The notes below the pieces were generated by a model. It was not told the DNA's origin, searched no databases, and saw nothing but the letters and a program-made list of their open reading frames with translations. A stretch of 44,261 bases of DNA from Nemertoderma westbladi (Eukaryota > Animalia > Xenacoelomorpha), in contig JAUCBJ010003019.1 in NCBI GenBank assembly GCA_032718475.1, positions 1-44,261 on the forward strand. Reading direction: 5' to 3'. Position numbers and translations under genes: made by a program. This document shows positions 2,814 through 40,000 of the stretch, piece by piece (position 1 is the first letter of the stretch; the number at the start of each line of letters is the position of its first letter).

Positions 2814-2899
2814 GCTTATGTGTACAGTTGAATGTCTACTGCTGTATTACAGTCTGAGCAAGTCTAGTAACTCAGTATTAACTGCTAGCCTAGTAATTA

Positions 2900-8389: not shown

Positions 8390-8462
8390 AACAGTTGATA
8401 CTGAACTACTAGACTTGCTTTAACTGTTATATAGCAGTAGGCATTCAACTGTACAAACAAAC

Positions 8463-14667: not shown

Positions 14668-15269
14668 TTAAAAAATTTCGAAAGAAAAAAAAAACGAGAA
14701 AAGTTGTGAGGAGCGAGCAGGGGGGGGGGGGGGGGGGGGGGGCAGTGATGCAACACACAAAGCGCGTAATAAGCTTACCTTTGGATAAAAATATTTTTTG
14801 CAAATAGGATAAGAGACATGGCAGTATGAAGATGCTGATTGGCTTGAGGGAAATCCAACACACATGACATTCACACACACACACCAACTCACACAGCAGA
14901 CACAGACAACAGACATACAAAGTGATATAATGTGGTATGAAGTGAAGAGAAGGGAGAATGAGTGAACCCAAGAAATGGAAAAGATGAATTAATTTCAAAT
15001 TTGACTGTGGTCTATATTCCCATCACCATAAACGTTAATAACGATATTGTACATACATAGGCCTGTGGCAATTGAAAATTAATACATACAAAAGATCGGC
15101 GAGCAAATAAACGTAAATTAGGTGAATTATATCCACGCATAAGAGGAATCGACTATGTTCATGCGAAATTAAGTTGACTGATACGGAAAATATATATGCT
15201 GAATATTTCAAATACAACTGTTCTGGAAAATATTTCAAATGCCAAACTAATGCGTAAATTAAAATGAAT

Positions 15270-15790
15270 GATATAAAATATGGCACTTAGTAGGCTGATA
15301 AATTTACGCGGAAATTAAATTAAATACCGGTACTGGAATATGGCGCTTAGTAGACTGAAGTATATGTAGAATATTAAATACTGAAATATGAATGCAGAAA
15401 TATGGCGCTTAATAAATTGAAATATTTATATAGAGGATTAGATACTGAAATATGGCGCTTAATAAATTGAAATATTTATTAAAATATGGCGCTTAATAAA
15501 TTGAAATATTTATATAGAGGAATAGATACTGAAATATGGCGCTTAGTAAATTGAAACATTTATATAGAGGATTAGATACTGAAATATGGCGCTTAAAAAA
15601 CTGAATATTTATGTGGAATATTAAATACTGAAATATGGCGCTTAGTAAATTGAAATATTTATATAGACTATATATAAACTGAAACATTTATGTAGAACAT
15701 TAACTACTGAAATGTGGTGCTTAGTAGGCTGAAATATTACCGCAGAAGTTAAAGATTAAAATATGGCGCATAGTGACTAAAATGCTTGAA
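15270..15790. repeat. Degenerate ~50-bp minisatellite in the LINE inter-ORF region
   Basis: Repeated ACTGAAATATGGCGCTTA(G/A)TAAATTGAAATATTTATATAGA units, about 10 copies. Confidence 0.85.
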
Positions 15791-15928
15791 TAGAATATTA
15801 AGCTAACTAATAAGAAATATACTTCTGAAACTTGAAACATTTGACTTGGTAAAAATGATATAACTGAATCAGTAAATACCGGTAGATGGTCAGTACCGAT
15901 ACAGTTACGATGAACATCACCTGCTCAA

Positions 15929-16984
15929 CTATTCTTCGGACGACCCACGAAGACCGATCAGAAGGGAGAATAATCTGGGGGACAAGTCAGACTGGAGGAA
16001 ATTGAGGACGTCTGTTAGAATCGTTAGATCTTTGGTAGCACAACGATCCTGTCCACCGTTGATAGCGTCCTCTACGACCTTGCGAAGTGAATCCACTCGG
16101 AAAACATCCCGCTTCTCGCCCGACAACAACTTGATGTATATGGCACCGTCGCGTGTCCAACAGTCCGATATTAATTTCATTTTGACAAATTTACGGCACT
16201 CAAGGAATAGAAGGGAGCGGTAAGGCGTGAGGCACTCGTTTACATAAATACGATCTGCCCGTGAGTCTGTCTTTAGTTTGAAACGGCCACGGTAGAAATG
16301 ATCCCTTGCCCTATACGTACTGAACTTTATGACTACCTGCCTTTTGTTGCGGGAAAGGTGAATTCTAGATGTGTCGCGAAGTAGATCGAATGATGTTACC
16401 CCACAACGCCGAGCGACCTCTACAACGAATGTGTCAACAACGTCATTAGTGGAAGCGGGAGAACTGGCTGCCTGCACGGCAGTCGCTTCTGCTGAAGGGC
16501 CGGATAATATAAGAGTGTTACGGCGCGAATATTGGGACTCATTATCACTTTTAAGAGCAAGAGCATTGATATGGGTTTTTTGGACAGAGCATCCGGTACA
16601 AGGTGACTCGAGTCGGCTGAGAAGAGATGTCGTCAGCGAGTCGAATTTAGCAGATATCGATCTCGTTATATTGTCTGCAAAGGACTGTAATAAGCCGCGC
16701 ATATCATCCTTATTGCCAGTAGTGAAATTCGAGATAGCGGAGGAAAAAGTCGGTTCGTCTTCTTCGCCCCAGTCGAGCGTCGTAGTCTGCGTCGCCTGAG
16801 GTACCGGTACCGATACCGGTAAACGTTTCGGATCTGGGGAGGCTACAGATGAGGAATGAGACGTTGCACTGTAAGAACGTTTGGACGGACCGTCACTACG
16901 ATTTAATTCTGTTTCTGTCATGCGAGTGCAAGTTCCCGTTGCCGTTGGGTTCATTTCGCAGCGGGAAGGATAGCAGTGAGGCAA
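15929..16984 (-). CDS. LINE ORF1 (coiled coil, RRM-type, C-terminal domain), 351 aa; exact start uncertain
   Basis: QYSRRNTLILSG, VVIKFSTYRAR, IYVNECLT and CWTRDGAIYIK are typical CR1-group ORF1 motifs. Same strand as and upstream of ORF2. Confidence 0.88.
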   Translation of the reverse strand: MPHCYPSRCEMNPTATGTCTRMTETELNRSDGPSKRSYSATSHSSSVASPDPKRLPVSVPVPQATQTTTLDWGEEDEPTFSSAISNFTTGNKDDMRGLLQSFADNITRSISAKFDSLTTSLLSRLESPCTGCSVQKTHINALALKSDNESQYSRRNTLILSGPSAEATAVQAASSPASTNDVVDTFVVEVARRCGVTSFDLLRDTSRIHLSRNKRQVVIKFSTYRARDHFYRGRFKLKTDSRADRIYVNECLTPYRSLLFLECRKFVKMKLISDCWTRDGAIYIKLLSGEKRDVFRVDSLRKVVEDAINGGQDRCATKDLTILTDVLNFLQSDLSPRLFSLLIGLRGSSEE

Positions 16985-17103
16985 TAGAACGACGGTAGGC
17001 CTATGTAGTACGGTACAATTTATTAAAAGCCTGAAATTGGTGTATTGGGACTAGGATGTGCACTAGGCCTCCATTATTGTACGTACAAGTATATCAAGTA
17101 TAT

Positions 17104-20100
17104 CGTCAAGTTCAATGGAGATGAGATGAAATGGTTACCTTTTAATGAATATTATAAAGATAACATACAGAACTCTGTGCTATCTAACGGAGAGAAACTT
17201 AGATTCCTCATCGAGTGCTTGGAAGGATCTCCCAAGTTAATGGCGTTAAAGTTTATTGGACATCCAGATGGATTAAGACAAGTTTGGGATACACTAAACA
17301 TCAGGTATGGTAATAGGAATAACATAGCTAGGTATTTGTATGCAAAACTAGTAGCGCCCCGAAAGTTCATTAGCAGCGGGATTATAGAGTTTTCCGATGA
17401 GATTCAGGAGATCTGTAGACAATTAGATTGGCTAGGTAAGTCTCATGAATATCAGAGTTCTATGGTTATTGGAGCCGTAGCATCTACTTTACCCAAGGGT
17501 GGAGTAGCTACACGCTGGGATAAGAAAGTGTTATATATGATGGAACAACAACGACGAGACCCTACCATGGCTGATCTCATGTCATTCTTAGATGGAGAAG
17601 TAAAATTACAGCTCCTAAAGCAGTCCAGGGAGAAGACACCGGAAAATAAGGTAAGTGAGAAACCCGTTTCTAGGAGAAAGGTAACACCAGTGTGTTATAC
17701 AGACGACGGCGAAAGCCAGGCTTCTCAAGAAGAAGACAGCGGAAAAGACACTGAAAGATCTTACTATGTAAACAAAGCGTCTAAAGACGTAAGTAAATTC
17801 AAGTCTCGAACCAATGACAGGAGAGAACAGGTAAGAAAAACTCCTCCTACGTCTCCTAAGAAAATTCATGTAAGAAAGCCCGAAGAAAGAACGAGTGTGC
17901 ACAACGTTACTCAAAGTAAGGTAAGTAACATCAAACCGAAATGTGCGCTGTGTGACGGGCCCCACCGTTTGAGCGTGTGTGATGAATTCCTAAAGAAATC
18001 ATTGAAAGATAGACGTGAAGTCATGTGGGATAAGCGGTTGTGTTATAATTGCCTCAGACAAGGACACCAACGGCGAACCTGGTACTCCGATGCAAGGTGT
18101 GCAAAGTGCGGCGCAAAGCATCATATCTTGTTGCACACTGAATTCGAATGAAACAGCCTGAGTCAGGTAAGTGAGTCCGAACTACATGTCCAATTCAGTG
18201 ATGTGAACGACACTGACCAAAGTTCTGAGATGGAAGGATTTTATACGGACGAATTCTCCGATGAAAACGAATCCTGTTACCTAATATATACCACAGTGTA
18301 TCGAGCACTTACCTATGAAAAGGACACCGACAGTGAGCCCCCCCTAACTACTCCTGACCGACAACCATCTTGGAAAGCACCAACTTCCAACGTAGGAATC
18401 AGAGAATTTCCCGTAGTGCAGTTGAGAGTCCATGGGCCAAACAAAAGCTATATAGTGAATGCCCTCCTTGACTCCGGCAGCACAGGAACATTCATCGACA
18501 AAGAACTAGCCGAAGACATCTTTGCTGGACAACCCAAATTCCGAACTAAGTTAAACATGTCAGGAATTATGAGGTTTGGAAATCTACAGTAATTGCAGAT
18601 TATTATGTAGGTACGTTGTCCACCCCCCAGGATGAACTAGGAGAACACAGTATAAGGTCAGTAAAAATGGTGGCGATAAAGAACTTCGCTACCAGCCAAG
18701 TGGAACCTTATAACTGGGATGAGGACGATTTCACCCAGCAGCTTAAGATACCTAGATTTAACACAGACTACCCTGGAGTGCAAATACTCATCGGCCAAAA
18801 TGCGCATGAGGCGCTTGAGACATTGGAGAAACGGCCTGCTCAACCGCAACCACTACAAGCTTATGCGGGAAGAACTAGAGTAGGTTGGTACTTTACTGGC
18901 CCTTCCCGTAGAACTCTCATGGAAAGGTTACCCAAAGAACGGGTATACCAGGTAAGTGAATGGGAAGAGGAGTTCAGTGAGGTAGAAGACATAACTGAGG
19001 GAACACCATACTCCTCAGATAATGACGATATCCACCAACTCTTCGACGAGGAGAATACCATCGACCTCCTTACCGAAAACGAAACTTGGCAAAACCAAGT
19101 GAACCTATGTCAACTCATTCGTCCATCAGGACAAGTCGACTATAACGACGAACTGAATGACGTGATAGATCGCTACAACGCGAAGACTCGGGATGAACAC
19201 GCCGTACGATTCTTTACTCAAGAGGCTGTAGAGCCCAATTCCTACGATAAGGCCCTATCGGTAGAAGAAGAAAGAGCCAAGCAGATACAGGAAACAACTA
19301 CACGTTTTCTTAAAGATCAAGGTAGATATGAAATTGGTCTACCATTTCGAAAGCGAGAACCTAAATTTATAAACAACCGACCCTTGGCGGAGAAAAGAAT
19401 TGCGCAACTATATCGACGCCTTACGGCAAATGCTTCAGCTAAAGAAATGTACAAGACTCAGTTGAAGAAATTTATTGACAAGGGATATGCGGAGCGAGTA
19501 CCGGAAGAAACACCCATAACTGAGAGAACGTACTATCTAACACATCATTACGTTCCCAAACCCGGTAAACCCAATGAAGTCCGGGTAGTATTTGACGGCT
19601 CCGCCCTCTACATGGGCCAATCCCTTAATTCCGAGTTGTTAGCAGGACCCAACTTACTCCAATCCTTGTTGGGAATCCTCTTAAGATTACGACAATATTC
19701 AATCGCTTTCGCCTCCAATATAGAAGGCATGTTCTTACAAGTTAAGGCGCTGGATAGGGATCGAGACAGCCTACGATTTCTGTGGTGGCCTGAGGGAGAC
19801 CTCAACCAGAAACCGGTGGAGTACTGGATGACCATCCAGGCTTTTGGGATCATCTCAAGCCCTTCAAACGCCTGCTCAGTAGTAAGCACCACTGCTGATG
19901 ACAACCGGGAGGCCTTCTCTAAAGAGGTGATCGACAACATAAAACGGGATATATACATGGACGACAATTTAAAGTCCCTCCCATCGGTGGAAAAAGCCAT
20001 TGATGTCGCCAAAGGAACGGTAGAGTGCTTGAAAAGAGGTGGATTTCGATTAACTAAATTCACCAGCAACTCCCGTGAGTTTCTGGAATCGATCCCGGTA

Positions 20101-20658
20101 GAAGACCGAGGAGTGAAAGATCTAGACCTAATCAAGGACGATCTTCCAGAAACCAAGACACTTGGTTTGAAATGGGACACAGAGAGAGATATCCTGTTTT
20201 TCCAGCTAAAACAGCGAGATAATCCAGTTCGGACTAAACGGATTTGTCTAAGTATCCTGAGCACTTATTTCGATCCATTGGGATTTATTAGCCCAGTTAT
20301 ATTGATTGCTCGGAGTTTAGTACAACAAATGTGGCTTGAAAATCACTCATGGGATGATCCACTTAAGGGAGAGCTACTAACGAAGTGGATGAAATTGGAA
20401 GATTCTCTACCATCCATCGAGAACTTTATAATTTCCCGTTCCTATTTTGGTCATGTTCTCCCCACGTATTCCTATCAACTCCATGTGTTTGGAGACGCCA
20501 GCGATATGGGAATAGGTATAGTAGCCTACCTGAGAGTTGAAACTCCGGATGGAATCAAAGTCGCCTTGGTTACCTCTAAGGCATTGATAAACAACAAGTT
20601 GAAAGTTCCTCGAGCGGAGTTAAAAGCTGCTCTATACGCTACAGCCATTGGCCGTAAT
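17104..20658 (+). pseudogene. A gag capsid/Zn knuckles, aspartic protease, RT and N-terminal RNase H (stops at 18149 and 18590)
   Basis: CALCDGPHRLSVC, CYNCLRQGHQRR, CAKCGAKHHILLH; NALLDSGSTGTFI; VRVVFDGS, SLNSELLAGP, YMDD, FDPLG, LHVFGDAS. TGA at 18149 is CGA in B. Confidence 0.92.
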
Positions 20659-21189
20659 TGTGACGGGATCTACGGATCCCGGTTTATCCGTTGGGTTTTC
20701 TATCCACGCGTCCCCGCCGTGTGTGAAAGGTAAAAGAGTTCTGATGTTGGGTAATATGTATAAAGGTATAATAGTCTGATAGTTGATATAGTATAGTATG
20801 ACACAACAGGTAATATATAATGGCGGTAGCGGACGGTGACAGAAGTCCCCGTTCCACCCTACTGATCTGACTGAGTAAACTGAATGACATGATTACAGGT
20901 TACTGGTTATATTGCACGGTGGCCTTATTGCTACTCAATCGATGCCTTTCCCCCCTCTGATTGGTTGATACCCCTGTTGGCACCCCGTGGAGTGTTCCCG
21001 TTCACTCCTCCTGTTCTCTCTGGGTTAGGGGTTTGGCCCCTGACCCCTTATTGTGTGTGTCTCCTTTGGGGCCTATTGTCCCCGTTTACTGGGCTGACAC
21101 GAGGTTGATTGGTAATCAACCTCGTGCTCCCAATATTGCTTTATGGCTCACTCTATGGGTTTGTGTTAGCGGAATTGGATAAGCTAACA
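20659..21189 (-). repeat. 3' LTR of element C
   Basis: Minus strand TGTTAGC...CCCGTCACA, preceded by PPT GGGGGGGAG (21190-21198). I find one mismatch to the other LTR (20801 A vs 27211 T). Confidence 0.95.
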
Positions 21190-21799
21190 CTCCCCCCCAT
21201 GCTATCTTCCCGGTAAGAAGATAGCATCCAACTCAAGTGCGCTACAATTCCACTGGATCCCGATCTAGCATCGGGTGTGGGGTGGGTATATTTTTTCTTT
21301 CGGAGCCGGCTTTCCGGGCCGCTCCCTATGGGTATGATGTCACTACCCTCTGGCGTCTCGTGTCGGGCCGATCGTGCGCTTCTCTCACACAATTTTTGTT
21401 TCCCCAACACTCTCACCACTCTACTCCAACTCTCGCATACTCCCGGACCTCCTCGTCCCACACTCTTCCTCTCACTTCTCCTCCCCCACACTTGAATTGC
21501 GCCCACGCTCTCTTCGCACTTCGCACTATTACTCCATCCCTCCTTGACTACCTTATCTCTTCTGACGAATCTCACCCCCCCTCCGTGCCGTCACACTCAG
21601 GAAATGTGAAATCGTCTGGCGTCTTGTCCCTAGTGCCATAGTCACTTAGCCCCCCAGTCCCAGTAGCTAATTGAGAAAGGTTGTATGACTATAGTACTTA
21701 CACCACTATCTCCGCACCCCGCACTATCACCTCTCCACTCTCTTGTCACTCCCTAAGGCTTTATTCTCTAATGCTACCCCTGTGCTATCATACTATCTA

Positions 21800-23255
21800 C
21801 CTACTGCTTACTAACTCTAACTATCTAACTAACTCTGCTAACTACTAACTCTTACTACTTCTAGCTCTAACTGAGAGCCTCTAACTTTCTACTGACTCTA
21901 ACTCTCTACTAAGTCTAACTAACTCCTACTAGCTCTCTACTTCTACTAACTCTACTTGACTCCCCTGAGTCTACCAACTCTGCTAACTAGCTCTACTAAC
22001 TCTACTCCACTAGCTCTGCTAACTCTACTCCACTAGCTCTGCTAACTCTACTAACTAGCTCTACTAACTCTACTCCACTCTTCTAACTACGTGGCGCTTG
22101 CGGTGCCCACAACCCCTTTACTACTACTTCCTTCTACGTGGCGCTTGCGGTGCCCACAACCACTCTACTATCTGGCACCCTATGTGCCCTCTCTACTACT
22201 CAACTACCTCTCTAACACTCTAACCCTACTACTTGGCACCCTATGTGCCCTCTCTACTACTCCACTCTCTGGCACCCTATGTGCCCTCTCTACTACCTCT
22301 AACACTCTAACTCTACTACCTGGCACCCTATGTGCCCTCTCTACTACACTACTACACCCCCTTTACGTCTCATCGCCTACACGTGACGCTCTGAGTGCCG
22401 GCAGAGTGGGTACGTTAATTATGTGAACTACTACTGACTCTACTAACTCTACTAACTCTCTTCTAACTCTCTTCTAACTCTACTAACTCTTTTTGTGCCC
22501 GGCACCTCTTGTGCCCGGCACCTTCTAACTCTACTAACTCTTTTTGTGCCCGGCACCTCTTGTGCCCGGCACCTTCTAACTCTACTAACTCTACTAACTC
22601 TCTACTAACTCAACTAACTCTACTACTAACTCTACTACTAACTCCTTTTGTGCCCGGCACCTCTTGTGCCCGGCACCCACCCTAATTAACATACCCTGCT
22701 CTTACATCAAACACGTCATCACGCCCGTGCCCCACTAAGTTCAGCGCATTCCCTACTAACTCTAACTACGTGGCGCTTACAGTGCCCACAACCCTCTACT
22801 GCTACTACTAACACCCCTAACTAGCGGTACTACGTACCCTTTAACTCCTACTCTCTAACGGTACTGCGTACCCTCTAACTCTTACTCTAACTCCACTAAC
22901 TGACGGTACTACGTACCCTCTAACTCTTGCTCTAACTAGCGGTACTTACGTACCCTCTAACTCTAAATAACTAGCGGTACTTACGTACCCTCTAACTCTC
23001 TTCTACTAACGGTACTACACGTACCCTCCTACTAACTCTTCTACTAACGGTACTACACGTACCCTCCTACTAACTCTTCTACTAACGGTACTACACGTAC
23101 CCTCCTACTAACTCTTCTACTAACGGTACTACACGTACCCTCCTACTAACTCTTCTACTAACGGTACTACAGTACCCTCCTACTAACTCTTCTACTAACG
23201 GTACTACACGTACCCTCCTTTAACTAACTAACTAACTAACTAACTACCTAACTTC
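21800..23255. repeat. Strand-skewed low-complexity/minisatellite 3' region of C (CTAACTCTA matrix, 38-bp unit x~6, GTGCCCGGCAC and GGCACCCTATGTGCC units)
   Basis: Directly visible. The 38-bp unit CTACTAACGGTACTACACGTACCCTCCTACTAACTCTT spans ~23003-23218. Confidence 0.9.
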
Positions 23256-23284
23256 TACCTACTCTATTATTTAATTATTTTTAA

Positions 23285-26200
23285 TTAAATAATTATTTTA
23301 TATTTTGTGCATGGGAAGGGCGTCTCGCCCTCATTCCCACCCCCTTCAGTCCAAAACTTTGGACGACTAAAAACTCTCACGTGCCCCTTCTTCCAGTAGG
23401 CACTCTCCTGCTGCCCTCCTATACGTCCTCTAACTCTTCGCCACACTCTCTTCGGTGCCACCTTTGCTGGCCTCCCCCTTCGTATGTGTGCTGGCATTAG
23501 AGCCCTCGACGACCCCCGCTCGTCCCTCGGTATACGCGGTGTCTGCCCATGTAATGCCCCCCCGCACTGTGTCAGCCCTGCGTGTGTATGCAACACGCCT
23601 CCTTCTACTTTCCCGACTCCCTTATGTTTGCTAATGGGCTTCTCTGCCCCTGGTTTAGTCCTTTGATATCCTCTCCCTTTCCAACACTCTCCGGATCTGT
23701 GTCCTTTTACCACACATCGATGACATAGTCCGTTTGCGTCTGTGTAGGCTACACGATCTCGTTTGGGCAACGCTTGCCAGTACTTGCAACTCCTGGTCTT
23801 ATGGGTTCCGTCCCGATGTAATTGAAATTGGAATCCTGGATTATAGCGTTTCCTGTATAGTCCTTCACGTATCGCGCTTAGGTTTATATGTACCGATCTA
23901 ATGTTTTGGTTGTCTAGACTCGGCCTACTGGGTATATTGGGATTGTGTTTATTTTTGGTGTTATTTTCTTTCTGTCCCTACCACGGTGTGGCCCTGCTCC
24001 CAGCTAACTGTGGACTGGTAGTCCCCTGTATGGCCGCGTGTGGTGGTGACTGTCCGCACGACCTGCTCTCGTCCAGGGAGTTCGATATTCTTGCTCCTAT
24101 CGGGGTATATTGTCGATATTGTGATGGGGGAATGTCACCCTGTCCCCCCCCAGCCGGTATGTTTGGTACTGGGGTTGATGTTAATACATTGGGGCCCATA
24201 CGTCTATCTCCAATAACTCCCCCCTCCCCTGGATATATGTTATGTCCCTGTGTATTATAGTCATGCTGCTGTACCGATATAGGCCTACCTACCTCTCGCC
24301 TACCTACCTGTATGTACTCCGCGACTTCCGGGTTTAATCCCGTCGTTCGCGCTACCCCATCGCCTACTCTATCTCTCCCAGCATGGCCTATAATAGTATG
24401 TGCAGTAAGGCCTACAGTATGTCCTGCAGTCTGCATGTGCCCTTCCGAACCGAAGTTTATTCTTCGCGAATCTCGAATCTCCCCGCGACTACTGCACTCT
24501 CGATCGGCAGCTATATCCCGTCGGGAAGCTTCTCTCCGATCCCCTCTCCTGTTCTCGACTCTGTATTGGTACGTCTTGTACCCCTCTCTTGGCGTGCGGT
24601 GCGTTTCTCCGGGGCGACGGCAATCTCCCGAAGTTCGACCCCACTGGCTCCCTGACTCCATCCCTACTGTCGACGGTCCGCTATCCGTCCTCACACTCCT
24701 ATCGTTCGTGGCGACACCTTTTCTACTATCTCCCTTTCTTCTCTTTTCAGTGCAGTATTCCGGCTCATGAGATCTCTCGTCGACCTCCCGGTTAAACTCC
24801 ACTGTTCTTCTTCCCTCTTCTGATCGGGCTCGACGCTTCGTCTGCCCTCTCGCGACGTCAACCTGCCTCTCTCTGCTCGATCGCACGCCGCTGGGGACAC
24901 TCGCAATCCCCCTATTACTCTCCGTCGCCGGGTGTTGCGGTTTACCTGATTCGGCCCGCGCATTATCCGCTGACGGCTGTGGGACACTCTCTGCCCCCCC
25001 TCTCTCTCTACTAACTTCTCGCGGTGGGGTGTCCGTAGCCCCCCCCCCCCCCCACCCGCCACTTCTAACTTCACTATCTCTTACTACACTTCTGCGTCCC
25101 TCTTGTGGGGCATTCTCTGCCCCCCCTCTCTCGCCACTAATCTTATGTGGTGGGGCGCCCGTAGCCCCCCCCCCACCCGCCACATCTAACTTCAATATCT
25201 CTTACTTTGTCTCTACACCCCTCTCTAGTCGACGCACTGTCTCTACTACGGCTGGGTCTATTCACCCCCCCTCTCTCTCTACTACTGCGTGGCCCATCAG
25301 GCCTACTTCGGGTTGGCTCAACCCCGCTACCTCCTGCCTACTAACTGCGTGGCCTACCAGGCCGCCGCCTGCCGTGTTATGTACGTCCGACACGCTCATA
25401 TTAATAGCACCATTCCCAATATTATTTGTTAAATCAATTAAATTGTTAGAATTTGAAACGAGATTTAAATTATTTAAATTAGAATTATTACTATTTTCAA
25501 AATTTAAATTATTATTCGAATTATTTGAATTATTCTGAATATTTGAATTAATGTTATTATTTGAATTTAAATTTAAATAATTACTACCAGGTAAAATATT
25601 ATTTGCTGCAATAAAGGGATTAGGGTTATTTACTACGGTACTATTAATATTATCTACTTCTAACGTACTATTATTACCCCCCCCCCCCCCCCGCCCGTAC
25701 GGCTACACCAGTTCTGGTTTTCTCGCTCGGTGCTTATAACTGGGGTCTCACTCTCTGATAGTTCCAACCGCGCCAGTTCTAGTCGGCGCTGGTCTAGTTT
25801 GGCTTGATATTGCGCAAGCCCCCTTAGCTGGGCACGCAAATCATCCCGCTCACGCTCTGCCTCTATCTCTCTCTCTATGCACTCTCGTAAACTTTGCTCG
25901 GCCAACTCGGTATCTCTCGCAACCATCTCAAGCCACGTCGCCGGCTCGTCCCCTACTCTCATCTCCCGCTCTCTACACTCCTTGACTCTCTCTCTATCCT
26001 CCATTGCCCACTCTCTTTCTCTCTCCAACCATGCGGTTTCCTCTCTCAATCGTCTCTCTAACTCATTCTGCTCTGTCGCCACCATCGCTAATTCATACGT
26101 CAGATTTATTTTCAGCACCCTTCTTTCTTTCGCGGAGGATGTAGCAGACTTATTGGTTGCGACGGACTCCCGCCGCCCCTCCGTCCTATCAACTTTCCCC

Positions 26201-26952
26201 CGCCTCCCGGAACTTCCTCCGACCGACGAGACCGAATCCTCGGAGTTAACCTCGGATTCGCCCTCCTCAGGTCTCTTCCAACCCACTAATTTTACTCCCC
26301 GGGCATCGACTAAGTATGGCCCTACGTACACTACGCTAGGTTCCATACCCCCACATTCCCATAGTTTAATCAGTTCGTTGGCAACCCCTCTCGCTCTCTC
26401 CTCGGCCAGTTCTCTCTGCCCAGAACACACTAGGTGATCAAAGTATCTGTTCGACTCACCTAGTCCCTTTGTCATCCTGACCTCGTCTATCCTCGCCCCC
26501 TCCTTGGCCTCCTTTAGTAGTTCCCGGGTCGCGTTGTAGGCCCGTCGAAGTCGATCAGAAACCCCGACGTCCTCGTCGCCGACCTCTCGTCTGTCTCTCC
26601 GGGTCCGACGTCGTACCGACGGCCCCACCGTCGCCGTTCCGGTGGACCGTTCGTCGTCCTCGGCCTGTGGCTGGCCGGCGACATCGGTATGTCGACCCTC
26701 GCTCCGCGTCGACTCGTCTTTCTCTTCTCCTCCCTTCTCATCTCCTTCCCTCGACTCGCTCTCCGATTGTAGACGACCCCCCACATCTTGGTTCGCCGGG
26801 TTGCTCGTTGTCGACGTGGCGTCAACCTGCGTCGACGTGGTCGGCGTAGCATCGACCGGCGTCGTGGGTTCGTATTGTCTCGCCATGGCCTCGCGGATCG
26901 TTAGATCGTCGTCCGGGGTCCGCGGCGGTGTCGTTCCTCTCTCTCGACTCAT
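23285..26952 (-). pseudogene. Gag-like ORF of C (~1220 codons when joined): coiled coil, Asn-rich tract, disordered region, BEL-type Zn knuckles; two frameshifts at G-runs and one in-frame TAG
   Basis: ATG 26952 reads MSRERG. Frames switch at G-runs near 25685 and 25170. TAG 23978-23980 is in frame with FQLHRDGTHKTRSC...LCHRCVVKGHRSGEC. Confidence 0.75.
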
Positions 26953-27059
26953 CGTCGTCTTTGGTGGCTGGCAGCCACGTTGATAACAATCTATCACTGT
27001 CAGACTGTTAGGGCAGCTGCTAGGATTCTATCTCTGTCAGGGCAGCTGGGCGGATCTAG

Positions 27060-27068
27060 TTCTGTCAC
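27060..27068 (-). promoter_or_regulatory. Non-tRNA primer-binding site of C (GTGACAGAA), complementary to LTR 27246-27254
   Basis: Directly abuts the LTR end, no TGG. Perfect 9-nt complement plus four further helices with the predicted 5' leader. Confidence 0.62.
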
Positions 27069-27599
27069 TGTGACGGGATCTACGGATCCCGGTTTATCCG
27101 TTGGGTTTTCTATCCACGCGTCCCCGCCGTGTGTGAAAGGTAAAAGAGTTCTGATGTTGGGTAATATGTATAAAGGTATAATAGTCTGATAGTTGATATA
27201 GTATAGTATGTCACAACAGGTAATATATAATGGCGGTAGCGGACGGTGACAGAAGTCCCCGTTCCACCCTACTGATCTGACTGAGTAAACTGAATGACAT
27301 GATTACAGGTTACTGGTTATATTGCACGGTGGCCTTATTGCTACTCAATCGATGCCTTTCCCCCCTCTGATTGGTTGATACCCCTGTTGGCACCCCGTGG
27401 AGTGTTCCCGTTCACTCCTCCTGTTCTCTCTGGGTTAGGGGTTTGGCCCCTGACCCCTTATTGTGTGTGTCTCCTTTGGGGCCTATTGTCCCCGTTTACT
27501 GGGCTGACACGAGGTTGATTGGTAATCAACCTCGTGCTCCCAATATTGCTTTATGGCTCACTCTATGGGTTTGTGTTAGCGGAATTGGATAAGCTAACA
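27069..27599 (-). repeat. 5' LTR of element C with CCAAT, TATA-like (27321) and Inr-like TCAGTT (predicted TSS ~27291)
   Basis: Near-identical to 20659-21189. TATAAC to Inr A spacing is 30 nt on the minus strand. Confidence 0.93.
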
Positions 27600-27604
27600 G
27601 TAAT

Positions 27605-29786
27605 GTAACAGAACAGATCGACTATCCACTGGAAAAAACTGTCTATTGGACCGATGCTTTACTCGTGTTGGAGTATATAACCAATGAAGTCTGTAAGTTC
27701 AGCGTCTTCGTTACTAACAGAGTAGCCATTATACTTAGTCGCACGAAGATAGATCAATGGAGACATTGCCCCGGGACGATTAATCCAGCCGACATCGCCT
27801 CCAGGGGAGCAACTCCGCAAGAACTGATAGATACTCCAGACTGGTTAAGTGGACCCGACTTTCTAAGCAAAGAAGAAGATGAATGGCCTCCTCATCTTAC
27901 CACGGCTGAGATTAGACAAGCCAAGGGAGCGGAGAAAGTCAAACCTAAAACCCGGGCGAGTAAATCGAAGTTATTTAAACCCACGATAGATCTGTCTGTA
28001 CTACACGTTTCCAGAGACGATGCTTTGGATCCACAATCCCTCGCCACAAATAAGTCTGTTGTGGAAATCAGAGAGAGAGATTGGAAATCTGGAATACCAG
28101 ACGTCTCGCAAGGACTCTCACCTCTCCTGCAGAGAGCGATACATCACTATAGTTCCTGGAATCGGCTCTGTAAGGCCGTTACATATTTAAAGCGATGTTT
28201 TCATCATCACTACTCCAGGACGAAGACCACTAGTGATAATGCTCCACTGCTGCGCTGCGCAGGTCCATGTTGTTAAAGATCTTCCCAAATACAAGATATC
28301 CGACAGGTTTCTGAAGGAGAAGATCAGTTACCAGGAGCATGAAGAAACCAATAAGCAGATACTGAGACTCCTGCAATGCTATGAGGATTCCAATAAGTAT
28401 TTCCTGTTGTTGAGAAATCCACAGATGCGCTTAAGGGATCGTTTCTCTAGCACCATGATAGATGGGTTAATACGTGTTGGAGGAAGATTAACTAGTGCTC
28501 CATTATCCTTTGACACTAAGTTTCCCATACTCATTAGAAGTCTTGAAATACAAATCAAGATGATTGTAGATGTTCACAGTAAGCTTTATCATGCTGGTAG
28601 AGAATGAGTTCTTAGCGAAATTCGAACTCGCTATTATTTTTATAAACCCCATAGAGCTCTGAACCAAGTTCTTAGGAACTGCATACCCTGTAGGAAAGCA
28701 TTCAGTAGGCCTTTAACACAGCGAGAGGTAGAATTACCTAGGGAACGAGTAAGCTTCTATGAACCACCCTTTACTAATACCGGTGTGGATTTGTTTGGCC
28801 CTATTGAAGTATATCGTGCTAGGACTATAGTCAAGAGATGGTGTGTCATCTTTGTTTGTATGACTTGTAGAGCTATCCATCTCGATATGGTGAACGATTT
28901 ATCTACTAACAGCTTCCTATTGAGCTTACGCCGACAGATCGCTCGCTTTGGAACTAGTAACACGATGAGATCTGATAAGGGAACAAACTTCATTGGTGCC
29001 AACAATGAAATCAAGGCTTACGTCAAAGATTGGAACCAAAGACAGGTGGACGATCAGCTAAGGGTAACAGCGTCTAGCTGGACCTTCAACGCCGCCGACG
29101 CCCCTTGGTGGGGAGGAAGTTGGGAGAGATTAATCAGGAGCGTGAAGACCGCATTTCACTTTATAGTGCCGTGCCGCGCGTATCTCACCGACGAACTTTT
29201 GCGGACGTTAATGGAGGAAATCGCCGCCTATCTCAACGAGAGACCTCTTATGCCAGTCTCATCGAGTCCCGATTCCCTGGAAGCGCTAACACCCGCGCAC
29301 TTCCTACTGAAGAAACCTGTAGCCATGCTCCCACGATCGGAAATCACAGACGGAGACGAATACTGCCGGCAAACTTGGCAACTTATGCAGTTGTTATCCC
29401 GTCATTTCGCTGACCATTTCGAAAAACATTATCTGCCCACGCTACAACTTCGAACTAAGTGGTTTGCGCAGCAAGAAAACGTCAGCGCTGGAGACATGGT
29501 CCTTATTGTGGATTCAGATCTTCCACGTAAGCGGTGGCAGACAGGTCGTATCATCGAGACTCATATCTCGGATGATGGTTTGGTGCGATCGGTAGAACTC
29601 GTCGTCATGCGACGTAACTTTAAGAAACCGGGAATTGTCTTCGAGACGCAGCAACTCAATCGCCCAGTTGGTCGTTTATGTTTACTGGAAAGAGACAGAG
29701 AACTCTCCGGAAACTATGGAAGGCAAGATACTCTTCCCACGACCACCTCCCTAATCCAACAAACATCTAGGGACTCCCCAACGTAA
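27605..29786 (+). pseudogene. A RNase H C-terminus and integrase (HHCC, DDE core, BEL C-terminal domain); frameshift near 28250 and stop at 28605
   Basis: YWTD, WRHCPGTINPADIASRG, WLSGPDFL, GLIRVGGRL, HSKLYH...CIPC, GVDLFGP, RAIHLDMV, SDKGTNF, WERL, LNERPL, LTPAHFL. Confidence 0.93.
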
Positions 29787-31489: not shown

Positions 31490-33517
31490 ATGACTGAGTT
31501 GATAGAAGATGATCTTGGTATCAGGGAGCGATATACTCTACCTTTACAAGCGTTTGTTGATAGCTTGATACGCGGCGACGCTAGTCCAACTACTACGGAG
31601 GACGATGGTCGTTATATCGAACCGCCAATGTCCCAGGAGTAACTTACGCGTGAATTGGACTATAGAAAATTCACCGCTCGCTATACGCATCGTAATGGTA
31701 CGTATATGGACTTCTTAACTACTGGCCATCCTATCGATTTACACGATACGGACGACGTAGACACCGAAAGGGAAATGGTTTTATTTAAATATCATACCCA
31801 GCGGAGTCGGAACGATAAACCGAGAATAGAACACGAGAATTCTATTCGGAACCGACTCGAAAGAGAAGACGTTGAAGAGCCGGATAAACGCAGCGACTTC
31901 AACGATTATATGGAATTCCTGAGAGAAACATATCTCAATATTGCCAGTCAACAAAATCTAGAAACTCGATATCCTCAAGGTATACATCATGACCCTATGA
32001 TAGAACTCAAACGGCTCTATTTCACTATGATGTATCTTACCGCCGATCGACCGCTACCTGTCATCCCAGATAGCTTCGAACAGATGGAGGAATATTGTAA
32101 AACTGGAGAACGATCACCCGCGTTTCCCCTGCAGGACGTGCGTCTTTGGTATTACTGCGACGAATGCCCTAGACCCAATCAGCAAACAGAAAGACATAAA
32201 CATCCACGGAGACGTTGCGCTAAACACAGTTTTACACGATATACTTATGGGAGTTTCGAGCGAAACCTGTTTGACATATCACCTACGCTCGCTCGACTCA
32301 AACGATCCTTAAATAAACCAATGATCAGAGTTCCGGAATACTCGGTCAGACCTCCTCATTCCTTAGTGAGACCTCAAATGCTCGATCCTAATAGTATAAC
32401 GGATCCCCCTGAACTGTACTCACTATTTAAAGATCTTGTGTTACCCGAACAATTAATCGGTGGCACTCCAGTAGTGGGCTCGCTAGATATTCGCCCACCC
32501 TACCTAGCCGGATTGGCACGCGGTCATCTAATATCGCCGTTTAACCCGTACAACCGTCCAGGTTTAACCCCGATACAACCCGTTACCGAAGTCGAAGAGA
32601 GCGTTGTACAAAACGCGTTAGACGCTATTCGGCAGAAGATCGGAAAAGGAACTTACGATTGTTTAGAGAAATGCAAATTGCAGCAACAAGTCCAAGCGGT
32701 GAAAGAATTAGCTTTACCCCAGTTCGATAGAGAAATCCAGAACCTCGAGGAAGACATCGAACATGGACGAACCTATTCTCAACAAGAGTTCCTAGACGAG
32801 CGTTTACAACAACAAGCGGAGGAAAATCAGCTCGAGGAGAAAAACATAGAAATGGATGAGAGAGAAGAAGCAGCTTTAGCCCAGCCAGAAGCTCAAATCC
32901 TTATGACGGATCTCTATTCTAAAACCATCATCCATCCTTCGATGGTTCCCCATTTCGGAGACAAACTCTTCGCCACGGCACAGCCTCAACCGGTTGATAT
33001 CAACCTAAGATCTCGAGATCTTATCGCTGACGCTCCCATGTTGCAACATCCGCCAATCGAGGCCGCTCGTGTCGATGGTATACTCGCTGTACCTCCGGAC
33101 AATAGAGCAGATCTTGTCCGTCGTATGGTACACGAAGTTAACATACGCGCTAGACCTTTACTGAACTCGTTTTATGGGATCAAAGATCACCCTTATTATG
33201 TCAATCTAACGCAATATTACATGGTAAAACCGGAAGATCCTACACATAGTCTGAGGTTTCTACCACTAATAAATCCTCTCGATCTTGTCGAACTCGAACA
33301 ACTGCAGAAACATCTGGATCAGTTAGTGAAAGTAAACTCATTTCGAAAACCCTATAATGTTTCCAGAATAGAGAAAGATACAATACCTCCGTATAATCTT
33401 GATGGATTTATCAAAACTCGATTAGTCCACTGGAATCTCGACGTGTTATTCGAGGAAGAAAGAATACAACGATATGGAGAATGTAGAAACATATACTACA
33501 CAGTATTTGAAGTATAG
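31490..33517 (+). CDS. Accessory ORF-X of A, unknown function (~675 codons, one in-frame TAA at 31640), with a CxxC...CxxH motif and Glu/Gln coiled coil
   Basis: ATG 31490 (MTELIEDD) is in frame with the 620-aa track ORF. Contains WYYCDECPRP...RRRCAKH. No family recognised. Confidence 0.7.
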
Positions 33518-35744
33518 AGATCTACCTAATGCTAGCGAATGCGCCACCTTGTGGCATCCAGTGGGAATGACTCTAGAAAGCGCCACTAAAGAGTGGAATG
33601 AGACTCTTAACGTTATCGAGATGTATGGAGTTGTCACTTACGATAACGAAGGTAGCGTTCCGGTTGGAGAACTGGGAACTACGCGCATGATACATATACG
33701 AGGACTAGCTGGTTCTACCCACGTATTCACTCGAGCGTGTTCCGATGTGATTGATTATTCTTTTGAGACCCTTACCGAGATACAAAAGAAACTCCGACAT
33801 GGACAATTCGAACTCGCGCAGCGTTACGTCACCGACACCGAGCGTAAACCGGCCATGGGTATCGATGGATCGATGATACCCCAGCCCGTGCTCGAGATGT
33901 TGTTTAATGAAAGAATCCTTAAAATCGGCTCAGCTGTTTATGGAGATCTCCAAAACGACTTTCGGAACATGGAGAACATTCCATACCCTTTCGTCGATAC
34001 TCAGCTGATTGCTCCCTGGGCAGAAGGCCGAGGTTTCTTCCGCACTATGTATGCAAATACACCCAGCGGCATTACTAAAGTACAACGAACCACCATCGGA
34101 CATCTTGCCTTTCAAGAATACGGATGGAATTTCAAGGTTGGAAATCCTATCAACTACCAACAAGTATATGGAGATCATTATTCTCGATTATACTTTGATG
34201 GACCATTGACCGCACCTGGTGCCGTGTATAGCTTTATGAGTGTTCCACTTCGTCCCTCTTTAGCTATATACATGATCTTTGAAAACGCCGCACTTGCTGG
34301 TTGGCTAGCCGATGTGTGCAGTCGTACTATACGCGCCCATCCCTTAATACTTGGAACCAAACTCGCCAAGCTAGATGAACACAATAAATTCATCCGCTTC
34401 GAATGTTTCAGGCGCTTTCTGACTCCGTTCCGTAACGTTGATAGTCAGTTCAAGGACCGCGCTCTGACCAAGCTCAGCCTAAGAGACTCAGCTGCTGAAA
34501 AGTTAGACAGCGCGGGATTCGCCATTTTCAAGGACGTTTGTATACAGAACTTACATTCATCTGTTATACAAAGACCTCGAATACCCACGGGTTATTCTAT
34601 CGTGGAAGTTCAGACAGCGGGTTCGCATGAGGAGACAGCCGCACCTACCTCAGCTATGCAATTGGAAGACGAACCAATATGCTTAGAATCTGAGGAGATT
34701 CAGCCTACAGCGCCCCAGAGCAGCGATAACGACTACGTCTTGGAATGGTATCAAGGTCCACAATGTCTCACCGCATACGATTATCGGCACGCCAACTATG
34801 TTTCTCGAAAACGTTGCCGATTATGCGCATCGAGAGATCATTTCACCCCTATGGACTCAGACGTACCCTGCTCCTATTTCCATGAACAACCGATGATGGA
34901 GATCTATTGTGCGTATTGCAGACTCAATAACTCGCACATTTTCGCAGTCTGCCCCCAATTTATGACTCAATGCCATCATTGTCAACTTAAAGGACATGCC
35001 AGTTTTAATTGCCCTTTTAACCGCGATCTGGAAAGCGTAGATGAGATGATTACCCTGCGCTACATCCGAGCTTGGGAAGCGAATGCGGATTTACATTGTG
35101 AGTCACGCCATCGCTATTACCCTGGACGCGCCTACGAAGGAGTTTACGCATTCCATCCTTATCTATTCGCGTCTGTTGAACAAAAATCGCGCACACCGAG
35201 TTACGAACTAATGAAGCGTGTTGGTGAGTGTATTTCCACCAAATTTGTTCGTAAATATCTCAGGAACATCAATCCTAACGATATTAATTCATACAATTTG
35301 ACCAATTTCATCCGTCAAGACCCGGAGTATGGCGATTTGTTCATCAACTCGCATCCTGAATTACAGGAAGTACATCGACGGCCTTACGAATATCGAGCCC
35401 GAGAACGCGAGCTGGAAAGAACCATTAAACCGAGGAAGTTTCTCACCACTCACGGTCTGCCTACCGCTATCGTTCAGACGACTTGTCAGGGACCAGTAGG
35501 AGCTGCTGTCCTAAGACGCGCTCTAAAGGCCGTTAGACCTCGCTCCACTGAAGTTGATATCGATCAACCAGGTACCTCGACCGGCGGATACACCGACTGT
35601 AATCCTAAACCTTCTGATGCAATTGTATTGCACCCTTCACCCAGGAGTTATAGCCCTCCTAGTAAAGTGGCTCGCCCCAAAGAGAAAAGGACTCTTGCTA
35701 GCCTCAAAAAACTGCGTAAACGCCGTCCGCACAAGAAAGACTAA
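33474..35744 (+). CDS. Accessory ORF-Y of A: DEDDy-type 3'-5' exonuclease (WRN/RNase D/Mut-7-like), tandem CCHC Zn knuckles, basic NLS-like tail (756 aa)
   Basis: ExoI VVTYDNEG; ExoII IPQPVLEMLFNERILKIGSAVYGDL; FVDTQLIA; TIGHLAFQEYG; ExoIII-like PLRPSLAIYMIFE; CRLCASRDH, CAYCRLNNSHIFAVC, CHHCQLKGHASFNC; KKLRKRR. Confidence 0.78.
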   Translation: MENVETYTTQYLKYRDLPNASECATLWHPVGMTLESATKEWNETLNVIEMYGVVTYDNEGSVPVGELGTTRMIHIRGLAGSTHVFTRACSDVIDYSFETLTEIQKKLRHGQFELAQRYVTDTERKPAMGIDGSMIPQPVLEMLFNERILKIGSAVYGDLQNDFRNMENIPYPFVDTQLIAPWAEGRGFFRTMYANTPSGITKVQRTTIGHLAFQEYGWNFKVGNPINYQQVYGDHYSRLYFDGPLTAPGAVYSFMSVPLRPSLAIYMIFENAALAGWLADVCSRTIRAHPLILGTKLAKLDEHNKFIRFECFRRFLTPFRNVDSQFKDRALTKLSLRDSAAEKLDSAGFAIFKDVCIQNLHSSVIQRPRIPTGYSIVEVQTAGSHEETAAPTSAMQLEDEPICLESEEIQPTAPQSSDNDYVLEWYQGPQCLTAYDYRHANYVSRKRCRLCASRDHFTPMDSDVPCSYFHEQPMMEIYCAYCRLNNSHIFAVCPQFMTQCHHCQLKGHASFNCPFNRDLESVDEMITLRYIRAWEANADLHCESRHRYYPGRAYEGVYAFHPYLFASVEQKSRTPSYELMKRVGECISTKFVRKYLRNINPNDINSYNLTNFIRQDPEYGDLFINSHPELQEVHRRPYEYRARERELERTIKPRKFLTTHGLPTAIVQTTCQGPVGAAVLRRALKAVRPRSTEVDIDQPGTSTGGYTDCNPKPSDAIVLHPSPRSYSPPSKVARPKEKRTLASLKKLRKRRPHKKD

Positions 35745-37012: not shown

Positions 37013-40000
37013 GCCTGTCCCTACTTCCATGCTGAGTGGATGTAGGCTTTTCCCTAGAGCTGGACCCTCATACCTGGCTGCAGGGGTATGGGACTTGATC
37101 AGGCAGAATGTCATCAACCAATGGCTGGTCAAGTATTAGGATGTACCTTGCGTCTATAAAGACGAAGGTACCTCCCACTGCAAGCTGCACCTGTAGCAGG
37201 GGTGTAATATATGGCCTGGCAGATGAGCCACTTGCCAATGGTGGGCCATATGCACCAGGGGAGCTTTGGGAGATGGGCCCATTGTAACCCCACTGCAACA
37301 CCCACCCTGTGGACTGGCAAACCAGGGTGTGGTACCTGCCCCGAGAGCGTACTCGGTAACAAAGCACCCCCCTTTCTAACCACAATGGATAGTACCAGTA
37401 ACGCGGAGGTCCGGCCACCTGGGGCCAGTGGAGAACCCGGACTTACAAGGCCCCACAGGCGCCAGTCTTCTCCTGACAGGCAGTCTGTATCCCAACCCCT
37501 AGGAGAGGGAGGAGCCGGCATTGCTTTACCCCTCCCTGATAATGACCCACTTGGCCCAAACCCTATTGGAGGGAGGCCAAATGGCGAAATTCAGTACCAC
37601 TGGGCTCATGTACCATCTAGGCCCAAAAACCCCCTGGTGAACATGAGACAAGTTACCATGCTTGCCTCAATAAATCCCAGGACTCTCAACCCACCACTGC
37701 AACAAGGGGAACTTACTGCTCTTGCAGATAAGCTGAACCTGACTGCAGTCGGTATTCAGGAACACCGCATGAGGTGCTCTGAAGAGGTAAGATACCAGGA
37801 TATGGGTGGTGGTTGGCAGCTTGTTCATTCCTCAGCGGATGATCAGGGAAACGGGGGAGTGGGTCTGCTTTTAAACCCAACTGCTTTTGCAGCACTAGAC
37901 AAGGTAGAGTCCATATCCCCCCGTATAATTTGCTACCACTTCACTTGCGCTGGTAAGATGGCAAAAAAGTTCCCCAAGGTTGTGATTATGGTATGCTATT
38001 CTCCAACTAGTACTGCTGATATAGCTGATGTAGACACATTCTATAACCAGCTGCAAGCAGCTACTGACTGTGTAGACAAGCATGCCTTTCTCACTATCCT
38101 TGGCGACTTCAATGCCAGCTTACCAAGATCCTCTTCTAACCCATGGGTTTATAGTGACACTGTAAACCGAAATTCAGGTCATTTGCAAGATTTTATTCTG
38201 GCAAATGAGCTGTTTTCGGCCAATACAAATTTCCAAAAACGACCTGGAAAGCTGTACACCCATGTGGGACCCAGTGGTCATAAGTCCCAGATAGACAACC
38301 TCATCTTCCGTAAGAAATACAGAGGATCAATAATTGACTGCTCTTCTCTCACAGTGCGGACATTTCAGACTGACCATCGATTGGTTATGGGAAAGACCAA
38401 ATTAAGCCTTCGTGCAAACAAGGGTCTTAAAAAGTCCACCCCACATCATGACTGGTCTACCTTGGATAAAAACCCCATTATAAAGGATAACTTTACAATT
38501 TAGGTTACAAATAGATATTCCAGTCTCATAAATGAAGAAATGAACCACTGTGAGAAATATACCCAGTTTGCTGCAGCAGTAAAGTCAGCTACAAAGAAAA
38601 CTGTTCCTCTAAAGCCACGGAAGTTGAAGAAGATCCCCTGGGCAGACCAGCGCATTCTAGACCTGCGAGAGGCATTGAACAAAGCCCAAAGAGAGTATCG
38701 TAGCCGACGTACAACTTCTGCAAAAAATGCAGTGAAAGCTTCAGTGAAATCTCTAAACAAGCAATACTCGATTAATAAAGCAAAGCTTATCAGCGAGCAG
38801 GTTGATACTATCAATGTTGCTGACGAAAGCAGGAAATCTGCTGAAGCCTGGCAAGCAATCAACCTGCTCTCTGGAAGAAAAAGCCGACCAACTGCCAAGG
38901 TGAAGGCTGATTCTCCAGCCGACCGCTTGGCAGGCTGGAAGTCTCATTTCGAGAAATTGCTAAATAATGATCGAGAACTGACTGACGATTTCACTGTAAA
39001 GCCTGTGTCACACACAATACTCTCAGACATCCCAATTGGTGACAAAACATTCGAAGAGGTCTTAACTGCTTCGAATGACATTAAAACCAATAGGGCATCT
39101 GGTGTTGATGATGTGCCTCCCGAGGTCTTTAAGATCAGAGAATGCCTTCAACTAGCCCACCCTATCCTAGTAGAAATGTACCGCACTAAGATTGCACCAC
39201 AAGAACTTAAGACTAATCGGCTAACACCCGTTCCAAAGAAGGGCAACCTCTCCTATTTTGGTTCACATCGTGGAATTAGTCTAATCTCAATTGCAGCTAA
39301 ATTATTCAACAGAATAATGCTGAATCGCATTAGGGATCCTGTAGAAAGACTCTTGCGTGGGAATCAAAATGGGTTTCGAAAAGGTAGAGGTACCTTTGAA
39401 CCCATTCTGGCACTTAGAAGGATTATTGAAGAGGTTTCTACAAAGAAAGACAGACATTTGGCTGTCATATTTGTGGATTTCTTCAAGGCCTTCGATTCCG
39501 TGTCACGCCCACGCATGTTCCAAATTCTTCAGGCATATGGGATCCCCAATGAGATCATTAATGCAATCAGATCAGTATATGACGGTTCCACGACCTTTGT
39601 ATCCACTACTGATGGAGACACAGACCCATTTGAGGTTCTCTGGGGTGTCCTTCAAGGAGACACATTAGCCCCGTTCCTCTTCATTATTGTGGTGGACTAT
39701 GTGCTGCGGACATCACTCGATCTTCATGAAGCTGATGGGGTGGAAATATCTCCACCATCAGGTAGCCGTAGACGTGGTTCCCCAGCAGAACATCTAACCG
39801 ACCTTGACTTTGCAGATGACCTTGGTTTACTGTCAGAGACATTAGAAGGAGCACAGAAGCTGCTATCTAGCTTAGAGGAGGCTGCATCTAGTGTTGGCCT
39901 CTTTGTGAATAGCACAAAGACCAAAATTCTGACAGTAAACATGGATTCAGATCAGCAGAAAATTGATCGGGATAACATTCAATCGCTGGATGGACTGGTA

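Follow-up and report, generated by a model that had tools for sequence, protein, structure and literature searches.

A non-autonomous BEL/Pao-like element of Nemertoderma westbladi whose leader may prime its own reverse transcription

Anatomy and coding content of the inserted element

We analysed the whole 44,261-nt stretch of contig JAUCBJ010003019.1 of Nemertoderma westbladi (assembly GCA_032718475.1), hereafter the window. An LTR element, which we call Element C, lies there on the minus strand, nested in an outer BEL/Pao element. The insertion and its surroundings comprise the following features.

27599 to 20659, minus strand: Element C, LTR element nested in the outer BEL/Pao element
27069..27599, minus strand: 5' LTR of Element C, 531 bp, TG...CA
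20659..21189, minus strand: 3' LTR of Element C, from the LTR-pair comparison
27600..27604, minus strand: upstream copy of the target-site duplication, 5 bp
20654..20658, minus strand: downstream copy of the target-site duplication, 5 bp
21190..21198, minus strand: polypurine tract of Element C, immediately next to the 3' LTR
25660..26952, minus strand: ORF1, gag-like N-terminal part, charge-rich; first post-LTR ATG at 26952
23978..25201, minus strand: ORF2, low-complexity
23285..23977, minus strand: ORF3, central BEL/Pao-type Cys/His box (linker and one CX2CX3GHX4C knuckle)
21190..23284, minus strand: non-coding 3' region, 2.1 kb, largely tandem repeats, without pol remnant
18550..20653, plus strand: outer BEL/Pao pol, left of the insertion, Peptidase_A17 match
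27605..29786, plus strand: outer BEL/Pao pol, right of the insertion, integrase region, DUF5641

The two LTRs of Element C are 99.8% identical, with a single difference (1/531) at 27211. These near-identical LTRs, the 5-bp duplication and the polypurine tract indicate a recent, integrase-made insertion, and the family as a whole is high-copy and recently active. The insertion splits the pol of the plus-strand outer BEL/Pao element, and the Pao pol of the window is that of the outer element, not of Element C. The LTR length of 531 bp fits the Belpaoviridae range of 0.2-1.2 kb, as does a polypurine tract before the 3' LTR. Within the LTR, U3 contains a strong 14-bp hairpin at 27537-27507 (-20.2 kcal/mol), and the LTR start (27599-27575) forms a short one.

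ORF1 would be gag judging by its position; it returned no match in Pfam, in the homolog search or in the Atlas, and the family search with ORF2 was likewise without a match. ORF3 matched a profile built from 42 BEL/Pao Cys/His boxes of metagenome loci (E 2e-7), ranking third among the 411 ORFs of the window. The first two ranks were taken by two gags of the outer family (E 1e-20) and the next match after ORF3 reached only E 1.5; an unrelated, knuckle-bearing ORF at 33426 was absent from the profile matches. The match of ORF3 covers profile positions 14-57 of 76, and the first and third knuckles are degenerate or absent, so that the full triple Cys/His box of Belpaoviridae Gag, as described in the available part of PMC554778, is not found in Element C. 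A homolog search with ORF3 gave none, and the Atlas yielded weak zinc-knuckle leads only, below its 0.9 level. None of 115 BEL/Pao pol proteins matched within Element C. The RT and integrase of Ty3/gypsy chromoviruses, which characterize Tf1/sushi elements, are absent as well: Element C lacks pol and its sole protein signal is BEL/Pao-like. With pol missing, the single sign of a BEL/Pao origin is one degenerate Cys/His box. Element C is likely a non-autonomous BEL/Pao derivative rather than a demonstrated member of the family; the earlier description of it as a BEL/Pao-type element thus holds for the Cys/His box and not for pol or the complete triple box.

The outer BEL/Pao family is present in two mutually inverted copies (6322-29800 and 7-4820) that are 84-87% alike. 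The plus-strand copy is interrupted by LINE-type insertions at 7791-8405 and 11269-17050 (two ORFs) in addition to Element C. A homolog search with the outer gag was empty, and the two other BEL/Pao copies of the window offered no LTR pair and no primer site for comparison.

Complementarity between the primer position and the LTR

The region that directly follows the 5' LTR of Element C, where the primer of minus-strand synthesis would bind, is complementary to a segment inside the same LTR. The features of this pairing are listed below.

27060..27068, minus strand: primer-binding position, 9 nt directly after the LTR, perfect complement of 27254-27246
27032..27054, minus strand: 3' arms of the four outer helices (7, 4, 5 and 3 bp), pairing prediction
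27246-27254 with 27068-27060, minus strand: 9-bp helix, 9 Watson-Crick pairs
27263-27269 with 27054-27048, minus strand: 7-bp helix, one G.U
27271-27274 with 27046-27043, minus strand: 4-bp helix, one G.U
27277-27281 with 27040-27036, minus strand: 5-bp helix, pairing prediction
27283-27285 with 27034-27032, minus strand: 3-bp helix, pairing prediction
27005..27067, minus strand: tandem repeat, 29-nt unit, 2.2 copies, 80% matches; forms the post-LTR arm
27075..27090, minus strand: hairpin 5 nt before the LTR end, -8.2 kcal/mol; block common to diverged subfamilies

In all, the 37 nt following the LTR pair with LTR positions 27285-27246. An earlier note on this DNA had described colinear helices of 9, 7, 4, 5 and 3 bp with two G.U pairs, and we recovered all of them as described, on the minus strand. 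Its statement that the 9-bp helix is flush with the LTR was also borne out: C27246 forms a pair with G27068, and this base immediately follows the LTR end at 27069. The candidate primer 3' end at C27246 has the context AC^C. The absence of a TGG-type tRNA primer site was confirmed, the first TGG occurring only at nt 92 after the LTR, and the 18-nt site complementary to a tRNA 3' end that is typical of Belpaoviridae was not found in Element C. What is present instead is a primer site that adjoins the LTR end and complements the element's own LTR, a defining property of Tf1/sushi elements.

When the LTR was shuffled 20000 times with dinucleotides preserved, a 9-mer complement anchored at this position arose 16 times; own-LTR pairing flush with the LTR end occurred in none of 500 shuffles in the analysis run alongside the relatives described below. 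When placed on foreign LTRs, the site of Element C found a complement of 8 nt at most. The 40-nt duplex reaches -42.3 kcal/mol versus -27.2 +/- 3.0 in shuffles (0/2000 as stable; z -5). For arms of 12, 18 and 25 nt the difference from shuffles is smaller (26, 60 and 3 of 2000, respectively). Among internal 40-mers (n=584), one other ties at -42.3 kcal/mol and another six come within 4 kcal/mol of this value. Since another internal 40-mer ties in energy, it is the position of the pairing and not its energy that carries the argument. The exact 24-nt pattern of the junction had 0 matches in metagenome contigs.

The post-LTR arm is formed by a 29-nt tandem repeat, the second unit of which supplies the 5- and 3-bp helices. 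This favors a reading in which the pairing has no role in priming: the arm would be an old inverted copy of the LTR that was later tandem-duplicated, and it would serve in fold-back or in the control of translation or packaging, with transcription starting near 27199-27204 and another primer being used. We consider this unlikely, as an accidental inverted copy need not end at the first post-LTR base, nor in AC like its relatives. It is also at odds with the recent transposition of the element (LTRs differing at 1/531) in the face of no other primer site.

Promoters, predicted folds and variation within the family

The leader that might serve as self-primer is delimited by a predicted transcription start and by the 3' end of the 9-mer. 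The relevant features are these.

27317..27321, minus strand: TATAA of predicted promoter 1, 30 nt upstream of the initiator-like A27291
27246..27291, minus strand: predicted leader and candidate self-primer, 46 nt; pairing computed, start and cleavage putative
27222..27229, minus strand: second TATA-like box of rival promoter 2, downstream of the leader; YYANWYY sites follow at 27204 and 27199
27108..27117, minus strand: alternative U5 partner competing for the 9-mer in the fold; variable among family contigs
27119..27245, minus strand: predicted stem closing R-U5, pairing 27245-27232 with about 27128-27119 in a constrained fold

An initiator-like TCAGTT has its A at 27291, at a spacing of 30 from the TATAA at 27321, and predicts a transcription start near 27291. 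Folding places the end of the complementary stretch at 27289 and alignment at 27295 (9/2000 shuffles), both within 4 nt of this start, which was predicted separately from the TATA-initiator spacing. Counted from the predicted start, the perfect 9-nt helix occupies +38 to +46. The LTR contains two similar TATA-led modules, 27321-27291 and 27229-27199, which flank the candidate primer. In the second of them the initiator-like sites lie 25 and 30 nt past the box at 27229. A start from this promoter would place the leader outside the 5' end of the transcript, which counts against self-priming and speaks for the pairing without a priming role.

We folded the LTR together with the post-LTR region. 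The fold of 27021-27295 has a z of -2.76 (1/200 shuffles). In the whole-leader fold, the four outer helices form at a probability of 0.97 or more, whereas the value for the 9-bp helix is 0.07 at 37 C and does not exceed 0.01 between 15 and 25 C, a point that the earlier note does not raise. The 9-bp helix is disfavored because the 9-mer prefers its U5 partner at 27117-27108; imposing that helix raises the energy by 1.2 kcal/mol at 37 C and by 3.6 kcal/mol at 15 C. This result counts against self-priming: outer helices that are predicted to form while the primer helix is not are what the reading without a priming role would accommodate. When the 9-bp helix is formed, the stem closing R-U5 is predicted to stack on it in the constrained fold. 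A U5-IR-like stem adjoins the primer duplex in the Tf1/sushi group. In Element C, folding predicts a stacked stem and a terminal hairpin next to the primer duplex.

It is also possible, though quite improbable in our view, that the same LTR segment is the primer but comes from another RNA molecule, from the 3'-LTR copy at the end of the transcript or from a co-packaged helper RNA, and not from the 5' leader folding back. The intramolecular fold that disfavors the 9-bp helix is in line with this, the segment is present in both LTRs, and such priming would survive a transcription start downstream of the leader. Against it, the complement stops near the predicted start, which fits a 5' leader, and neither AATAAA nor ATTAAA was found in the Element C LTR, leaving no polyadenylation signal to place a 3' end. 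In addition, Tf1 uses the 5' end of its RNA, according to the available text of PMC7175516.

Variation within the family was drawn from five DNA runs of one organism in three studies, all of them sets of contigs, of which the less diverged were compared. Ratios of LTR to primer-site depth were not used, as contig depth is not a copy number. Among the substitutions listed (at least 25), none falls at 27218-27275 and 21 fall at 27092-27163, an interval that includes the competing U5 partner. The sole change listed in the 9-bp helix is C27064 to U (17-25% of depth, two studies), which keeps a G.U pair; among the variants listed, C27279 to U likewise keeps a G.U pair and the variant at 27276 falls in a loop. 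C-to-U changes keep wobble pairs automatically. A27033 to U (46-52% of depth) breaks the 3-bp helix and counts against self-priming. Two-sided compensatory changes were absent among the variants listed in family contigs, a further point for the reading in which the pairing plays no part in priming.

Other contigs match the end of the LTR and the start of gag but not the bases between, with joints at 27054, 27060, 27065, 27066 and 27067; loose contig ends at 27067 number 9 and 5. One contig has everything beyond 27054 replaced, which counts against self-priming. Judging by these contig joints, no more than two bases of the primer site are common to the subfamilies. Loose ends behind 27297 were found in 5 and 2 contigs (agreement about 0.7). 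By eye, these contigs appear to retain the initiator but to have another TATA-like box ahead of it, and the apparent retention of that initiator disagrees with the pairing having no priming role.

The divergence of the site between subfamilies argues against a fixed cellular primer. It bears on a further alternative, which we regard as very improbable: that a cellular RNA primes Element C, namely a tRNA fragment rather than the 3' end of a whole tRNA, as in copia lineages with half-tRNA primers. Over its first 7 nt the site complements what we take to be the tRNA-Asp(GUC) anticodon loop, and over its first 9 nt it presumably looks like the body of a primer site for tRNA-Leu that lacks the TG. 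The assumed match of 7 nt is nonetheless shorter than the 9 nt shared with the element's own LTR, and a search of 26800-27700 against Rfam found no family at the site, with nothing but two chance matches elsewhere. No tRNA gene was detected in the window or in the loci of the relatives. Half-tRNA primer sites are known in copia lineages and need no TGG, as stated in the accessible part of PMC6317226.

Relatives, known systems and the proposed mechanism

We aligned 33 BEL/Pao pol regions and fetched 80 metagenome loci, of which 16 had short flanks, 32 lacked a direct repeat and 32 had one. In the last group the LTR end could be fixed for nine loci and the LTR start only for eight; the remaining 15, neither LTR boundary of which was usable, were left out. 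These relatives were fetched with the pol of the outer element and not with Element C, so they show the behavior of BEL/Pao elements and not that of Element C's helper; what links Element C to them is the one Cys/His box. Searches of viral contigs with single-protein and alignment queries gave no relative.

Among the nine relatives with a fixed LTR end, eight lack TGG and six pair the primer position with their own LTR. In five of the nine, a 10-15-nt complement is built across a canonical GT..AG junction in the LTR (0, 1, 1, 3 and 10 of 500 shuffles), the second exon giving 4-7 nt of it. The sixth (L035) has a contiguous 11-mer complement (1/500 shuffles), whereas L026 and L071 show neither a clear own-LTR complement nor a TGG after the LTR end. 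Where only the LTR start was fixed, four of eight relatives have a junction complement (0/30 shuffles each) and four are without, no clear own-LTR complement being seen in L016, L020, L027 and L044. The loci with a splice-junction complement are the following.

L007, 6341-6759: fixed LTR end
L033, 7274-7675: fixed LTR end
L040, 2079-2772: fixed LTR end
L042, 6752-7204: fixed LTR end
L048, 6465-6864: fixed LTR end
L001, L004, L012 and L043: fixed LTR start only, L043 belonging to the L042 family

The closest analogue of Element C is L035 (566-925), whose contiguous 11-nt complement ends AC^C and lies 3 nt after the LTR end. A TGG-type tRNA site occurs in L039 (56-80), the single case among the nine.

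The own-LTR complement of the relatives lies within 0-3 nt of the LTR end, and in Element C, L033 and L042 the pairing begins right at the first post-LTR base. The paired segment ends in AC in eight of nine relative families (AT in L007) and in Element C, even though the search imposed no such constraint. The self-complementary sites of the relatives use different letters from those of Element C, and when primer sites were compared with foreign LTRs, splice options included, 2 of 90 comparisons reached 10 nt and 6 of 90 reached 9, the latter counting against self-priming. Like Element C, the loci L007, L033, L040, L042, L048, L001, L004, L012 and L035 combine the lack of TGG with an own-LTR complement. 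The splice-junction loci differ in that a GT..AG intron builds the complement; Element C has no such intron yielding 7 nt or more. For Element C itself, every GT/GC..AG pair was tried as a splice-junction primer, and no complement of at least 7 nt was obtained. The relatives also lack the long outer helices of Element C, the z of the 40-nt duplex being above -2 in all nine. In a tree of 31 RT-RH rows, the splice signature is scattered over a wide branch and not confined to one clade; this tree cannot place Element C, which has no pol. L039 groups with L048 (spliced) and L071 (support 94/93), which suggests that the priming mode may switch within the BEL/Pao branch. The splice-junction relatives are a stronger case for self-priming than the single, non-autonomous Element C.

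On balance, we lean toward the leader of Element C priming reverse transcription in place of a tRNA. The earlier proposal of self-priming draws support from the geometry, the lack of TGG, the divergent site and the six of nine relatives; the disfavored 9-bp helix and the rival promoter downstream weigh against it. In the mechanism that we propose, transcription would start near 27291 and the four outer helices would hold the leader against the 5' UTR. The 9-mer would then switch from its U5 partner at 27117-27108 to the primer site, at the predicted cost of 1.2 kcal/mol at 37 C, perhaps with the help of Gag. The RNase H of an RT supplied by an autonomous BEL/Pao helper would cut after C27246, leaving the new 3' end opposite G27068, and extension would proceed from A27069. 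The product would be a strong-stop DNA of about 177 nt joined to a primer of about 46 nt. Element C would accordingly be the unspliced version of a self-complementary site that most related BEL/Pao elements build across a splice junction. Only tentatively do we extend this model to a broad BEL/Pao branch that dropped tRNA priming and uses its own leader, mostly spliced and cut after AC. In this extension, Element C would be unspliced, with a capped leader of 46 nt held by the outer helices and a 9-mer that toggles as a switch for the start of reverse transcription.

This mechanism resembles that of Tf1 in outline, although Element C is not a Tf1/sushi member. Like Tf1/Tf2 of Schizosaccharomyces pombe, Tj1 and other Tf1/sushi elements, it has no tRNA site and a post-LTR site that complements its own LTR, and the Tf1/sushi model invokes the same RNase H-released self-primer (PMC7175516, PMC4600332 and PMC5341516, in their available parts). 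Tf1 pairs the first 11 nt of its RNA with the primer site and RNase H cuts between nt 11 and 12 (available text of PMC7175516), whereas the helix of Element C spans 9 nt at predicted positions +38 to +46 and is accompanied by four imperfect helices. Self-priming like that of Tf1 has been proposed for Tj1 (PMC4600332, in the part available), and the regulation of Tf2 involves a choice of start site that includes or omits the self-primer (PMC5341516, likewise in part). In contrast with the Tf1/sushi elements, which are Ty3/gypsy chromoviruses, Element C has a BEL/Pao-like Gag remnant and no pol. Self-priming has also been predicted, from complementarity alone, for the Tcn1 clade and for the copia TAR lineage (Houba, Osr-1), which lies outside Tf1/sushi (PMC6317226, accessible portion). 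The case for Element C is of the same kind, but these lineages belong to other superfamilies and TAR is found in plants.

With Belpaoviridae (Semotivirus) and the Sinbad/Suzu-like marine elements, Element C shares TG...CA LTRs, a polypurine tract and the central Cys/His box; it differs in the absent tRNA site, the incomplete triple Cys/His box and the missing pol (PMC8742986; PMC554778, in part). According to the ICTV profile (PMC8742986), Belpaoviridae are primed by a tRNA at an 18-nt site for tRNA-Arg or tRNA-Gly, and how they replicate is little understood. We found no report of self-priming in BEL/Pao elements in the full-text literature, a body that leaves aside most subscription papers, supplements and Repbase. 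The main text of a survey of metazoan BEL/Pao elements (PMC3118150) does not use the terms PBS, primer or tRNA. In the accessible parts of PMC3601003, PMC6934838, PMC8220671, PMC11042837, PMC5443660 and PMC5445492, self-priming, if mentioned, concerns non-BEL elements only. Since self-priming has already been proposed in a second superfamily, its presence in a third would be a variant and not a new principle. If the proposal holds, a third LTR superfamily would use self-priming, with longer primers and a common AC end, and annotation tools that demand a tRNA site would misjudge many intact BEL/Pao elements. The Cer7 element of C. elegans reportedly encodes its own tRNA-like primer.

Finally, the rest of the window contains two long overlapping plus-strand ORFs of 624 and 772 aa (31643-35744) without Pfam matches, the second of which, of 772 aa, has several Cys/His knuckle-like motifs. 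A near-complete LINE with two ORFs (endonuclease, RT, DUF6451) lies at 37208-40588, and an intronless ORF of a rhodopsin-family GPCR, a host gene that along with the BEL/Pao content points to an animal host, at 42382-43365.
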